Source: a virus (taxonomy: Duplodnaviria; Heunggongvirae; Uroviricota; Caudoviricetes). From it: DNA of 43,831 nucleotides. The translations under genes were made by a program, and so were the position numbers. This document shows positions 38,446 through 43,831 of this stretch, piece by piece. The stretch lies in IMG/VR virus record IMGVR_UViG_2711768019_000013, one strand, 5' to 3'. Each line of letters begins with the position of its first letter. Position 1 is the first letter of the stretch. The notes under the pieces are model-generated. The model was given only the letters and a program-made list of their open reading frames with translations, had not been told where the DNA came from and searched no databases.

Positions 38446-41046
38446 ATGAGCACAAAACCACTCTTCCTGTTACGGAAAGCGAAAAAATCATCCGGTGAAC
38501 CTGACGTCGTCCTGTGGGCAAGCAACGATTTTGAATCGACCTGTGCCACTCTGGACTACCTGATCGTTAAGTCAGGTAAAAAACTGAGCAGCTATTTTAA
38601 AGCTGTTGCCACGAATTTTCCTGTCGTTAATGACCTGCCCGCTGAAGGTGAGATCGATTTTACCTGGAGTGAACGCTATCAACTCAGCAAAGACTCCATG
38701 ACATGGGAACTAAAACCGGGAGCAGCACCAGACAACGCTCACTATCAAGGCAATACCAACGTCAACGGCGAAGACATGCCTGAGATTGAGGAGAATATGC
38801 TACTCCCAATTTCTGGCCAGGAACTGCCCATTCGTTGGCTTGCTCAACACGGCAGCGAAAAACCGGTAACGCACGTTTCACGCGACGGACTCCAGGCATT
38901 ACACATTGCTCGGGCTGAAGAACTACCGGCTGTTACTGCCCTGGCTGTTTCCCACAAAACCAGCCTGCTCGACCCGCTGGAAATTCGCGAACTCCACAAA
39001 CTGGTTCGTGACACTGACAAAGTTTTCCCTAATCCTGGTAATTCAAACCTGGGACTGATAACTGCTTTTTTCGAAGCATACCTGAACGCTGACTACACCG
39101 ATCGAGGACTGCTGACAAAAGAGTGGATGAAGGGTAATCGTGTTTCACACATCACTCGCACGGCTTCCGGTGCTAATGCTGGCGGCGGAAACCTCACCGA
39201 TCGCGGCGAAGGTTTCGTACACGATCTGACGTCACTGGCGCGGGACGTAGCCACTGGCGTACTGGCCCGTTCAATGGATCTGGACATCTATAACCTTCAT
39301 CCGGCACACGCTAAACGCATTGAGGAAATTATCGCTGAAAATAAACCGCCCTTTTCTGTTTTCCGCGACAAATTCATCACCATGCCTGGCGGGCTGGATT
39401 ATTCCCGCGCCATCGTGGTTGCGTCCGTAAAAGAAGCACCAATTGGGATCGAGGTCATCCCCGCGCACGTCACTGAATATCTGAACAAAGTACTGACTGA
39501 AACCGATCATGCCAACCCTGATCCGGAAATCGTGGATATTGCCTGCGGTCGCTCCTCTGCCCCGATGCCGCAGCGAGTAACAGAAGAAGGAAAACAGGAT
39601 GATGAAGAAAAACCGCAACCATCTGGAACAACGGCAGTTGAACAGGGAGAGGCTGAAACAATGGAACCGGACGCAACTGAACATCATCAGGACACGCAGC
39701 CGCTGGATGCTCAGTCACAGGTAAATTCTGTTGATGCGAAATATCAGGAACTGCGGGCAGAACTCCATGAAGCCCGGAAAAACATTCCATCAAAAAATCC
39801 TGTCGATGCCGATAAATTGCTTGCTGCATCACGTGGTGAATTTGTTGACGGAATTAGCGACCCGAACGATCCGAAATGGGTAAAGGGGATCCAGACTCGC
39901 GATTGTGTGTACCAGAACCAGCCAGAAACGGAAAAAACCAGCCCGGATATGAATCAACCTGAGCCAGTAGTGCAACAGGAACCGGAAATAGCCTGCAATG
40001 CCTGCGGCCAGACTGGCGGGGATAACTGCCCTGACTGTGGTGCGGTGATGGGCGACGCAACATACCAGGAAACATTCGATGAAGAGAGTCAGGTTGAAGC
40101 TAAGGAAAATGATCCGGAGGAAATGGAAGGCGCTGAACATCCGCACAATGAGAATGCTGGCAGCGATCCGCATCGCGATTGCAGTGATGAAACTGGCGAA
40201 GTCGCAGATCCCGTAATCGTAGAAGACATAGAGCCAGGTATTTATTACGGAATTTCGAATGAGAATTACCACGCGGGTCCCGGTGTCAGTAAGTCTCAGC
40301 TCGATGACATTGCTGATACTCCGGCACTGTATTTGTGGCGTAAAAATGCCCCCGTGGACACCACAAAGACAAAAACGCTCGATTTAGGAACCGCTTTCCA
40401 CTGCCGGGTACTTGAGCCGGAAGAATTCAGTAACCGCTTTATCGTAGCACCTGAATTTAACCGCCGGACAAACTCCGGAAAAGAAGAAGAGAAAGCGTTT
40501 CTGAGGGAATGCGCAAGCACAGGAAAAACGGTTATCACTGCCGAAGAAGGCCGGAAAATTGAACTCATGTATCAGAGCGTTATGGCTTTGCCGCTGGGGC
40601 AATGGCTTGTTGAAAGCGCCGGACACGCTGAATCATCAATTTACTGGGAAGATCCTGAAACAGCAATTTTGTGTCGGTGCCGTCCGGACAAAATTATCCC
40701 TGAATTTCACTGGATCATGGACGTGAAAACTACGGCGGATATTCAACGATTCAAAACCGCTTATTACGACTACCGCTATCACGTTCAGGATGCATTCTAC
40801 AGTGACGGTTATGAAGCACAGTTTGGAGTGCAGCCAACTTTCGTTTTTCTGGTTGCCAGCACAACTATTGAATGCGGACGTTATCCGGTTGAAATTTTCA
40901 TGATGGGCGAAGAAGCAAAACTGGCAGGTCAGCTGGAATATCACCGCAATCTGCGAACCCTGGCTGACTGCCTCAATACCGATGAATGGCCAGCTATTAA
41001 GACGTTATCACTGCCCCGCTGGGCTAAGGAATATGCAAATGACTAA
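38446..41046 (+). CDS. recE: Exodeoxyribonuclease VIII RecE (866 aa)
   Basis: [46 protein letters not shown]... to C-terminal ...[14 protein letters not shown]; length and sequence match Rac RecE. Confidence 0.95.
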
Positions 41047-41848
41047 GCAACCACCAATCGCAAAAGCCGATCTGCAAAAAACTCAGGGAAACCGTGCACC
41101 AGCAGCAATTAAAAATAACGACGTGATTAGTTTTATTAACCAGCCATCAATGAAAGAGCAACTGGCAGCAGCTCTTCCACGCCATATGACGGCTGAACGT
41201 ATGATCCGTATCGCCACCACAGAAATTCGTAAAGTTCCGGCGTTAGGAAACTGTGACACTATGAGTTTTGTCAGTGCAATCGTACAGTGTTCACAGCTCG
41301 GACTTGAGCCCGGTAGCGCCCTCGGTCATGCATATTTACTGCCTTTTGGTAATAAAAACGAAAAGAGCGGTAAAAAAAACGTTCAGCTAATCATTGGCTA
41401 TCGCGGCATGATTGATCTGGCTCGCCGTTCAGGTCAAATCGCCAGCCTGTCAGCCCGTGTTGTCCGTGAAGGTGACGAGTTTAATTTCGAATTTGGCCTT
41501 GATGAAAAGTTAATACACCGCCCAGGAGAAAACGAAGATGCCCCTGTTACCCACGTCTATGCTGTCGCAAGACTGAAAGACGGAGGTACTCAGTTTGAAG
41601 TTATGACGCGCAAACAGATTGAGCTGGTGCGCAGCCAGAGTAAAGCTGGTAATAACGGGCCGTGGGTAACTCACTGGGAAGAAATGGCAAAGAAAACGGC
41701 TATTCGTCGCCTGTTCAAATATCTGCCCGTATCAATTGAGATCCAGCGTGCAGTATCAATGGATGAAAAGGAACCACTGACAATCGATCCTGCAGATTCC
41801 TCTGTATTAACCGGGGAATACAGTGTAATCGATAATTCAGAGGAATAA
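41039..41848 (+). CDS. recT: Recombinase RecT (269 aa)
   Basis: [65 protein letters not shown]...; start ATG 41039 overlaps the recE stop; the track start at 40982 is upstream in frame. Confidence 0.95.
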
Positions 41849-41903
41849 TTCAGCCTGGCGGTGTAATGCACCGCCAACTTGAAATATTTTTATGAGAAAA
41901 ATT

Positions 41904-42053
41904 ATGAGATATGACAATGTTAAACCATGTCCATTTTGTGGTTGTCCATCAGTAACGGTGAAAGCCATTTCAGGATATTACCGAGCGAAGTGTAACGGAT
42001 GCGAATCCCGAACCGGTTATGGTGGAAGTGAAAAAGAAGCACTCGAACGATGA
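41904..42053 (+). pseudogene. ralR: ralR (restriction alleviation / type I toxin) truncated by an in-frame TGA after 49 codons
   Basis: ATG 41904: MRYDNVKPCPFCGCPSVTVKAISGYYRAKCNGCESRTGYGGSEKEALER then TGA (42051-42053); the same frame continues NKRTTGNNNGGVHV to TAA (42096-42098), the RalR C-terminus as I remember it, which implies TGG to TGA at codon 50. Confidence 0.6.
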
Positions 42054-42090
42054 AATAAACGAACCACTGGAAATAATAATGGAGGTGTTC

Positions 42091-42279
42091 ATGTATAAAA
42101 TTACCGCCACTATTGAAAAGGAAGGTGGCACTCCTACTAACTGGACAAGATATTCAAAATCTAAACTAACGAAATCAGAATGCGAAAAAATGCTCTCAGG
42201 TAAAAAAGAAGCAGGCGTTTCCAGAGAGCAGAAAGTAAAACTGATAAATTTTAATTGCGAGAAACTTCAGTCCTCGTGA
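42091..42279 (+). CDS. YdaC-like small protein (62 aa from MYKITATIEKEGG)
   Basis: Track ORF 42019-42279; the internal ATG 42091 overlaps the ralR reading-frame end; an alternative ATG at 42079 (MEVFMYKIT) is possible. Confidence 0.5.
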   Translation: MYKITATIEKEGGTPTNWTRYSKSKLTKSECEKMLSGKKEAGVSREQKVKLINFNCEKLQSS

Positions 42280-42378
42280 ATTGCATTGTATTCAAATTAA
42301 AACTTCATAGCTGATTATTAATAATCAACATCGGGCGTCAATTTAAGTCTAACATTGGCGCCTGCCAGAGGTGATGCG

Positions 42379-42594
42379 ATGGCACAAGTAATCTTTAATG
42401 AAGAGTGGATGGTTGAATACGGCCTGATGCTTCGCACTGGTCTGGGGGCCAGACAAATTGAAGCATACCGCCAGAACTGTTGGGTGGAAGGCTTCCACTT
42501 CAAACGAGTATCTCCTTTAGGGAAGCCAGACAGTAAGCGAGGGATTATCTGGTATAACTATCCAAAGATAAATCAGTTTATCAAAGACTCATGA
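42379..42594 (+). CDS. xisR: Excisionase (71 aa from [10 protein letters not shown])
   Basis: AGAGGTG before ATG 42379; stop TGA overlaps the int ATG (TCATGATATG); position immediately upstream of int. Confidence 0.7.
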
Positions 42595-42595
42595 T

Positions 42596-43831
42596 ATGTC
42601 TAAATTACCAACAGGTGTCGAGATTCGAGGTAAATACATTCGCATCTGGTTCATGTTTCGAGGAAAACGATGTCGGGAAACATTGAAAGGCTGGGAGGTT
42701 ACTAACAGTAACATTAAAAAAGCCGGGAATTTAAGAGCGTTGATAGTTCATGAAATCAATTCCGGTGAGTTTGAGTATTTAAGACGTTTTCCCCAGTCCA
42801 GCACTGGGGCAAAAATGGTGACAACGAGGGTCATAAAAACGTTCGGGGAGCTTTGTGATATCTGGACAAAAATTAAAGAAACAGAGTTAACAACAAACAC
42901 AATGAAGAAAACGAAATCACAATTAAAAACACTCAGGATAATAATTTGTGAGAGTACTCCGATATCGCATATTCGTTATAGCGATATCTTAAACTACCGG
43001 AATGAACTGCTGCATGGAGAAACGCTTTACCTGGATAATCCAAGATCCAACAAAAAAGGAAGAACCGTGCGCACAGTTGATAACTATATCGCCCTGCTCT
43101 GTTCGTTGTTACGTTTTGCGTATCAGTCGGGATTTATATCAACCAAACCATTTGAAGGAGTAAAGAAATTACAGAGAAACAGAATAAAGCCTGACCCGTT
43201 ATCTAAAACAGAATTCAATGCATTAATGGAAAGTGAAAAAGGACAGAGCCAGAACTTGTGGAAATTTGCCGTATACTCCGGGCTTCGTCACGGGGAACTG
43301 GCTGCTCTGGCGTGGGAGGATGTGGATTTCGAGAAGGGAGTTGTGAATGTCAGAAGAAACCTGACGATACTGGATATGTTCGGTCCCCCAAAAACAAATG
43401 CGGGGATCCGGACGGTAACACTACTGCAGCCTGCTCTTGAAGCACTGAAGGAGCAATACAAACTGACCGGGCATCATCGCAAAAGCGAAATCACTTTTTA
43501 TCATCGGGAGTACGGCAGAACCGAAAAGCAAAAACTGCATTTTGTTTTCATGCCCAGAGTGTGTAACGGAAAACAGAAACCTTATTACTCGGTAAGCAGT
43601 TTGGGTGCGAGATGGAATGCAGCAGTAAAACGTGCTGGTATTCGCCGCCGTAATCCGTACCATACGCGGCATACTTTTGCCTGCTGGCTGTTGACGGCAG
43701 GAGCGAACCCGGCGTTTATAGCCAGCCAGATGGGGCATGAAACTGCGCAGATGGTGTATGAAATTTACGGTATGTGGATTGATGACATGAACGACGAACA
43801 GGTAGCCATGTTGAATGCGCGGTTATCGTAG
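42596..43831 (+). CDS. intR: Tyrosine integrase (411 aa); its stop is the last codon of the window
   Basis: MSKLPTGVEIRGKYIRIWFMFRGKRCRETLKGWEVTNSNIKKAGNLRALIVHEINSGEFEYLRRF... matches my memory of Rac IntR; C-terminal ...HTRHTFACWLL...GHETAQMVYEIY catalytic region. Confidence 0.9.
   Translation: MSKLPTGVEIRGKYIRIWFMFRGKRCRETLKGWEVTNSNIKKAGNLRALIVHEINSGEFEYLRRFPQSSTGAKMVTTRVIKTFGELCDIWTKIKETELTTNTMKKTKSQLKTLRIIICESTPISHIRYSDILNYRNELLHGETLYLDNPRSNKKGRTVRTVDNYIALLCSLLRFAYQSGFISTKPFEGVKKLQRNRIKPDPLSKTEFNALMESEKGQSQNLWKFAVYSGLRHGELAALAWEDVDFEKGVVNVRRNLTILDMFGPPKTNAGIRTVTLLQPALEALKEQYKLTGHHRKSEITFYHREYGRTEKQKLHFVFMPRVCNGKQKPYYSVSSLGARWNAAVKRAGIRRRNPYHTRHTFACWLLTAGANPAFIASQMGHETAQMVYEIYGMWIDDMNDEQVAMLNARLS

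Follow-up and report, generated by a model that had tools for sequence, protein, structure and literature searches.

A widespread natural opal allele of the toxin gene ralR (lar) in Rac-type prophages of Escherichia coli, most likely encoding an inactive or strongly weakened protein

In the 43,831-nucleotide stretch of viral DNA analysed here (IMG/VR record IMGVR_UViG_2711768019_000013; hereafter the window), the reading frame of the toxin and restriction-alleviation gene ralR (lar) is interrupted by an in-frame TGA, raising the question of whether the stop is real, how it came to be there, and what remains of RalR if it is. Translation of positions 41904–42098 yields MRYDNVKPCPFCGCPSVTVKAISGYYRAKCNGCESRTGYGGSEKEALER, a stop, NKRTTGNNNGGVHV and a second stop. 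From the ATG at 41904 to the TGA at 42051–42053 the frame encodes residues 1–49 of RalR, as established by translation and by alignment to the K-12 gene, and past the TGA it reads NKRTTGNNNGGVHV to the TAA at 42096–42098. An earlier note on this DNA had recognized these two parts from the letters alone and had given both the C-terminus of RalR and its length of 64 amino acids; comparison with ralR of K-12 MG1655 (b1348, 195 bp) proved both correct, and the alignment bore out its reading of the stop as a single TGG to TGA nonsense change at W50. Nucleotide alignment of the two genes revealed only two differing positions. At 42048 the window has C where K-12 has A, a synonymous difference in codon 49 (CGA versus AGA, both Arg); at 42053 it has A instead of G, which turns codon 50 from TGG into TGA. 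The locus thus comprises, on the plus strand, a truncated ralR open reading frame of 49 codons plus TGA (41904–42053; Pfam PF14354), for which identical loci have the CDS annotation WP_001443846.1, the premature opal codon followed by an A (TGA-A), and the former codons 51–64 with the original TAA (42054–42098), which are open in frame and identical to K-12. This last segment overlaps the ribosome-binding site and start of rcbA, and showed no variation across 21 fetched carriers of the TGA allele.

The surroundings of the gene are those of a Rac-type prophage. The plus-strand genes recE (38446–41046, 866 aa) and recT (41039–41848, 269 aa), the latter immediately upstream of ralR, have the same lengths as their K-12 counterparts, in agreement with the earlier statement that both are intact. 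The attachment-site end of the prophage is represented by xisR (42379–42594) and intR (42596–43831), likewise on the plus strand. The window is a Rac-type prophage of full length, and its positions 1–37000 contain genes for a tape measure protein, gpJ, terminase and a portal-like DUF4055 protein as well as trkG and lysis genes. In 675 complete genomes, coverage of the left 25 kb reaches at least 80%; none of these is identical to it, the best match being NCTC10444 (99.5% identity over 98%). Between the GGCGGTG...CACCGCC hairpin (41859–41877) and the ralR start, the sequence is highly indel-prone across loci; the T-run at 41887–41891, for instance, is T5 in the window and T6 in K-12.

The frequency of the allele was determined in 5426 complete E. 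coli genomes. Of these, 1922 were matched by a query of 451 bases from the ralR region, at least 40 being 100% identical to the window. For discrimination of the alleles we used 55-mers centred on position 42053 and megablast with a 28-base exact word, so that a central mismatch abolishes the match. The TGA 55-mer was found as an exact match in 310 genomes, i.e., in about 6% of all genomes surveyed and in about one in six (approximately 16%) of the 1922 that bear ralR. The TGG 55-mer matched 1310 genomes, so that at least this number of the ralR-bearing genomes keep the tryptophan codon; 123 of these matches have CGA as codon 49, and the remaining 1187 show one or two other mismatches, which is consistent with a K-12-type AGA at codon 49. 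Carriers of the TGA allele include O157:H7, O55:H7, O111:H8, O26 and O103 strains from human, animal and environmental sources. In one of the 310 cases, the record with the allele is labelled not as chromosomal but as a plasmid. In IMG/VR, 17 contigs have the TGA allele, compared to at least 120 with TGG. The exact 49-residue protein occurs on at least 1000 contigs in a collection of 15 billion proteins; it is named RalR ("MULTISPECIES") by NCBI and "Restriction alleviation protein, Lar family" by UniRef, and PGAP annotates the short frame as an ordinary CDS (WP_001443846.1) without a pseudogene flag in strains E2865, O157:H7 ATCC 43890 and AR_0067. The allele is therefore an ordinary natural polymorphism of ralR, already catalogued in RefSeq and UniRef. 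No literature description of a truncated ralR allele, including from O157, was found among the retrieved results, which did not comprise the original lar paper (King and Murray 1995).

The allele descends from one mutational event. A 55-mer combining AGA at codon 49 with TGA at codon 50 had no exact match in the 5426 genomes and at 98.2% identity picked up nothing beyond the 310 genomes with CGA-TGA. A repeated origin of the stop at codon 50 was rejected on these grounds, all carriers being on one haplotype, and the exclusive association of TGA with the CGA codon points to a single origin. Among 139 fetched loci covering the region (21 TGA and 118 TGG), all 21 TGA carriers were 100% identical to the window from 41850 to 42300 (451 bases), whereas the 118 TGG loci were polymorphic at dozens of sites and comprised more than 20 variants of the coding sequence; from this contrast we infer a recent and single origin of the TGA allele. 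The sampled CGA-TGG alleles are of a different type (proteins beginning MRYEKV); position 42017 sets all 34 of them apart from the window, and position 41984 also sets apart 33. Simple one-step descent from these alleles was thus discarded, the carrier haplotype being otherwise K-12-like, and either the immediate ancestor is unsampled or the carrier haplotype is recombinant. In two strains with the MRYEKV-type ralR, O145 RM9872 and L73, recE encodes 1023–1041 amino acids and a 350-residue RecT-family protein is encoded upstream of ralR; given this different recombination module, the early-left region of Rac is a mosaic with a junction near ralR.

Comparison of the carriers with one another indicates that the haplotype has moved between chromosomal backgrounds. 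From recT to intR, O157:H7 ATCC 43890 and AR_0067 differ at only 1 of 2793 bases, whereas the adjoining chromosomal segment from ttcA to zntB differs at 91 of 4153 bases. Near-identical prophage segments in such diverged chromosomes imply transfer, which would have occurred by lysogeny and/or recombination, and the haplotype sits in mosaic variants of Rac. Four carrier sequences compared were identical from 41448 to 42344, divergence being confined to xis/int; in this part (42345–43831) the window has 53 differing sites relative to E2865, and 9 relative to the O157 strain and AR_0067. The way these differences cluster points to recombination with breakpoints immediately downstream of rcbA. Guo et al. 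(2014; PMC4041452) took the view that type I loci such as ralR/ralA are not freely spread horizontally; contrary to that view, the ralR/ralA locus has passed from one chromosomal background to another. The allele also occurs in three GenBank "phage" records, among them ON470614. These were considered as proof of viable particles and rejected as such, since they extend only from the integrase to genes in the middle of the tail region; they look like predicted prophage regions. A further phage record, PP818812.1 ("Actinobacillus phage vB_Apl-pPE4"), shows 90.4% identity to the E. coli ralR-rcbA segment at its positions 334–783. A Rac-like region would not be expected in a phage of Actinobacillus pleuropneumoniae, and the record may reflect mis-assignment or contamination.

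What the stop removes can be judged from the Lar family as a whole. The 49-residue product retains all four zinc-ribbon cysteines (C9, C12, C30 and C33) and scores 39 bits against Pfam PF14354 (Lar_restr_allev; cut-off 28.6), aligning to profile positions 2–52 of 58. With the tryptophan restored, the 64-residue protein scores 53.5 bits over positions 2–58, so that 14.5 bits of the full-length score stem from the final six profile positions. When 1.84 billion representative proteins were searched with a profile, 3968 members of the Lar family emerged; the best 145 of these representatives contributed 201 domain hits, in which conservation was counted. W50 was conserved in 100%, N51 in 98% and R53 in 91% of the hits, compared with 97–100% for the four zinc-ligand cysteines. 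W50, the only invariant non-cysteine residue of the family, is the residue replaced by the stop, and since N51 and R53 are not translated, the entire WNxR motif is missing from the product. Even the shortest listed members of the family (50–53 aa) align across the WNxR profile positions, and close homologues from Salmonella and Citrobacter retain RWN(K/R)R. In an AlphaFold2 model of moderate confidence (pLDDT 70), RalR consists of three strands (residues 17–22, 25–30 and 36–39) and one helix (residues 43–58), of which the stop would leave 7 of 16 residues. A search of the PDB yielded no solved structure of a relative, only spurious weak sequence matches. A Foldseek search with the model returned no hit at E ≤ 0.001; the highest-ranking, insignificant likenesses were to small zinc-ribbon proteins such as ELOF1 and the zinc ribbon of eIF2-beta.

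The remainder of the toxin-antitoxin module was found unchanged. The earlier note had asked whether the region of the antisense RNA is retained, and a full-length RalA (179 nt, minus strand, 42097–42275) was indeed identified by Rfam RF02694 (225.1 bits versus a gathering score of 170, E value 5.7e-55, model positions 1–179 of 179). It is encoded divergently, downstream of ralR, and is identical to K-12 ralA (b4714). According to Guo et al. (PMC4041452), ralR mRNA and RalA share 16 nt of complementarity, 11 of them contiguous, and the pairing segment lies 62 nt from the 5' end of RalA. Both partners, assigned from the repeat described in that study, are identical to K-12 in the window, namely the target in the ralR mRNA (AAGTGAAAAAGAAGCA, codons 41–46; 42026–42041, plus strand), which ends 10 nt upstream of the new stop and is intact, and the pairing segment of RalA (plus-strand sequence AGGTAAAAAAGAAGCA; 42198–42213, minus strand). 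With its toxin frame truncated, the locus probably represents an antitoxin with a disabled toxin. If the fragment remained toxic, perfect retention of RalA and its target would likewise be expected; however, the allele is too young for decay to be visible, and ralA overlaps rcbA, which is perhaps separately constrained. In two IMG/VR loci, a 12-nt deletion (42206–42217) lies inside the RalA pairing segment.

The neighbouring gene rcbA (ydaC, DUF1187; 42091–42279, plus strand) encodes a protein of 62 aa that matches Pfam PF06688 with 132 bits over positions 1–61 of 61, and the gene is also annotated where the locus is identical. Its ATG overlaps the original ralR stop codon, and it has its own Shine-Dalgarno sequence (GGAGGTG, 42081–42087). 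As ribosomes on the truncated frame now terminate 38 nt upstream, any translational coupling between ralR and rcbA is lost. The rcbA frame of the window ends at TGA 42277–42279; K-12 has AGA there and its frame runs to 69 aa, the K-12 base A at 42277 being common to 53 of 84 K-12-type loci. Position 42277 is also position -2 of the RalA transcription start, the 5' end of RalA being 42275. Open reading frames in which ralR is fused to rcbA exist in public databases; one of them, P0012, looks like the result of a deletion between two 16-nt direct repeats (42026–42041 and 42198–42213), and in another, P0015, ralR and rcbA are joined at a different point. With such deletions, the C-terminus of ralR and at least part of ralA would be lost.

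Taken together, the data make it probable that the window contains a genuine natural W50opal allele of ralR, of single origin and since spread, which is most likely inactive or strongly weakened. One G-to-A transition would have occurred once, on a single ralR haplotype of a full-length Rac-type prophage, and this haplotype has since reached several lineages of E. coli through transfer by phage, recombination or both. Translation is expected to end after Arg49, giving a 49-residue zinc-ribbon fragment that is devoid of the Trp-Asn-x-Arg motif and of the second half of the C-terminal helix and is hence most likely inactive or strongly weakened, and the other parts of the module, namely RalA with its target site, rcbA, recET and xis/int, are unchanged. 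The inactivation of ralR proposed earlier is plausible in the light of the conservation of W50, N51 and R53, and stands as a prediction from sequence and model: with the invariant W50 and the WNxR motif removed and the predicted C-terminal helix halved, the 49-residue RalR has likely lost, or retains only in strongly weakened form, its activities as DNase toxin and restriction-alleviation protein.

Some residual activity of the fragment is possible, as its zinc ligands and three predicted strands are kept and the Pfam threshold is passed. An alternative reading goes further and regards the 49-residue protein as a working short isoform that keeps toxicity, restriction alleviation, or one of the two. 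The preserved zinc ribbon with its four cysteines and three predicted strands, the score above the Pfam threshold, the maintenance of RalA and its pairing target, the wide spread of the haplotype and the unflagged annotation by PGAP all fit a functional short protein. However, across some 200 diverse family domains W50, N51 and R53 vary as little as the zinc ligands do, family members of only 50–53 residues still align through the WNxR profile positions, and the last six profile positions hold 14.5 of the 53.5 bits. Besides, hitch-hiking with a successful prophage can account for the spread, and the missing pseudogene flag merely reflects the length rules of PGAP. We therefore consider a working isoform unlikely.

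A small chance of similar size is given to positive selection for the nonsense allele, driven by a cost of full-length RalR to the host. Overproduction of RalR is toxic (PMC4041452), induction of the full-length protein lowers CFU about 1000-fold, the allele is present in 310 of the 1922 ralR-bearing genomes, and other rare lesions of ralR are known, comprising frameshifts, ralR-rcbA fusions and W50S. Nevertheless, the allele has a single mutational origin without recurrence at codon 50, at least 1310 genomes retain TGG, the number of carriers is inflated by heavily sequenced STEC lineages, and the toxin is normally kept in check by RalA. The earlier suggestion of selection against the toxin is thus left without support, given one origin and the TGG codon in at least 1310 of 1922 ralR-bearing genomes; in the population data examined, no signal separating selection from neutral hitch-hiking was found at ralR. 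The frequency of the allele may simply be due to the success of one prophage haplotype in STEC lineages that have been sequenced intensively.

More doubtful still is a leaky opal codon, at which occasional misreading of UGA by the near-cognate tRNA(Trp), its usual misreader in E. coli, would insert the original tryptophan and yield traces of exact full-length RalR, so that the allele would be attenuated rather than null. In favour of this, the 14 downstream codons are open and unchanged, and an A following the UGA, as in the window allele, reportedly favours leakiness (a point attributed to Engelberg-Kulka, 1981). UGA readthrough in E. coli depends on the competition between Trp-tRNA(Trp) and RF2, and amounted to about 2% at 37 °C and 4% at 25 °C in a K-12 reporter system (PMC10570021). 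However, strains other than K-12 have a more active RF2 variant, with which occupancy at UGA stops is lower and NudL, a readthrough product of K-12, is no longer visible (PMC5373646). The allele is moreover so young that the conservation of the codons after the stop is uninformative, and background readthrough is common to any opal mutation rather than a designed feature. No stable RNA structure was found 3' of the UGA; the 66 nt from 42045 to 42110 fold with -6.2 kcal/mol (z = 0.37 versus shuffled sequences). Selenocysteine insertion and structured readthrough were rejected, as this segment forms no hairpin after the UGA, and nothing suggests programmed recoding. If the leak were real, carriers would make a trace of authentic RalR plus an inert 49-residue fragment, and the allele would be a naturally dose-reduced toxin or anti-restriction gene with a lower cost of carriage for a transfer-competent Rac-type phage. 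Alternatively, the fragment may separate DNase toxicity from restriction alleviation; even when joined, the two readings, a leaky dose-reduced allele or a fragment that splits the two activities of RalR, reach only a slim probability.

A sequencing or assembly error at 42053, with G as the true base and an intact ralR, as also raised by the earlier note, would fit the single-base difference from K-12 at codon 50, but can practically be dismissed, since the same base occurs in 310 independent complete genomes, 17 IMG/VR contigs and, as the protein, on at least 1000 contigs and in RefSeq, which excludes error as a general explanation, and since in the window copy itself it is linked to the synonymous CGA marker at codon 49 and to a 451-base haplotype that an error would not recreate.

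If the natural allele has indeed lost its function, as we prefer to read it, the main consequence is one of annotation. Databases name a RalR devoid of WNxR as a functional toxin in approximately 16% of the ralR-bearing complete genomes, including those of major STEC serotypes, and surveys of toxin-antitoxin systems that count RalR/RalA as present would overstate the number of functional systems in the carrier lineages. The allele also provides a ready-made natural truncation for probing the role of the conserved WNxR helix in Lar-family proteins, which may act as DNases or as modulators of type I restriction. Beyond annotation its significance is small, as it is a catalogued allele of a known gene.

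Compared with known systems, the window is closest to the RefSeq entry WP_001443846.1 ([quoted passage not shown], MULTISPECIES), from which neither the protein nor the 451-base haplotype differs. RalR of K-12 (RALR_ECOLI, b1348, 64 aa) is identical in residues 1–49, but the window product lacks WNKRTTGNNNGGVHV. The order of the locus, recE-recT-ralR-rcbA/ralA-xisR-intR adjoining ttcA, is shared with K-12 Rac; the window prophage, however, is of full length with structural genes, whereas K-12 Rac is a 23-kb remnant. With the Lar_restr_allev family (PF14354) the product has in common the CPFCG...CxxC zinc ribbon followed by a helix, a score above the gathering threshold, and the synteny typical of Lar/RalR, with ralR between recT and xis/int in the Rac early-left operon; unlike the family, it is without the invariant C-terminal WNxR. 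With the RalR/RalA type I system described by Guo et al. (2014; PMC4041452), in which the toxic DNase RalR is neutralized by RalA with dependence on Hfq, the locus finally shares RalA, the complementarity and the 62-nt geometry, but not the complete 64-codon toxin frame.
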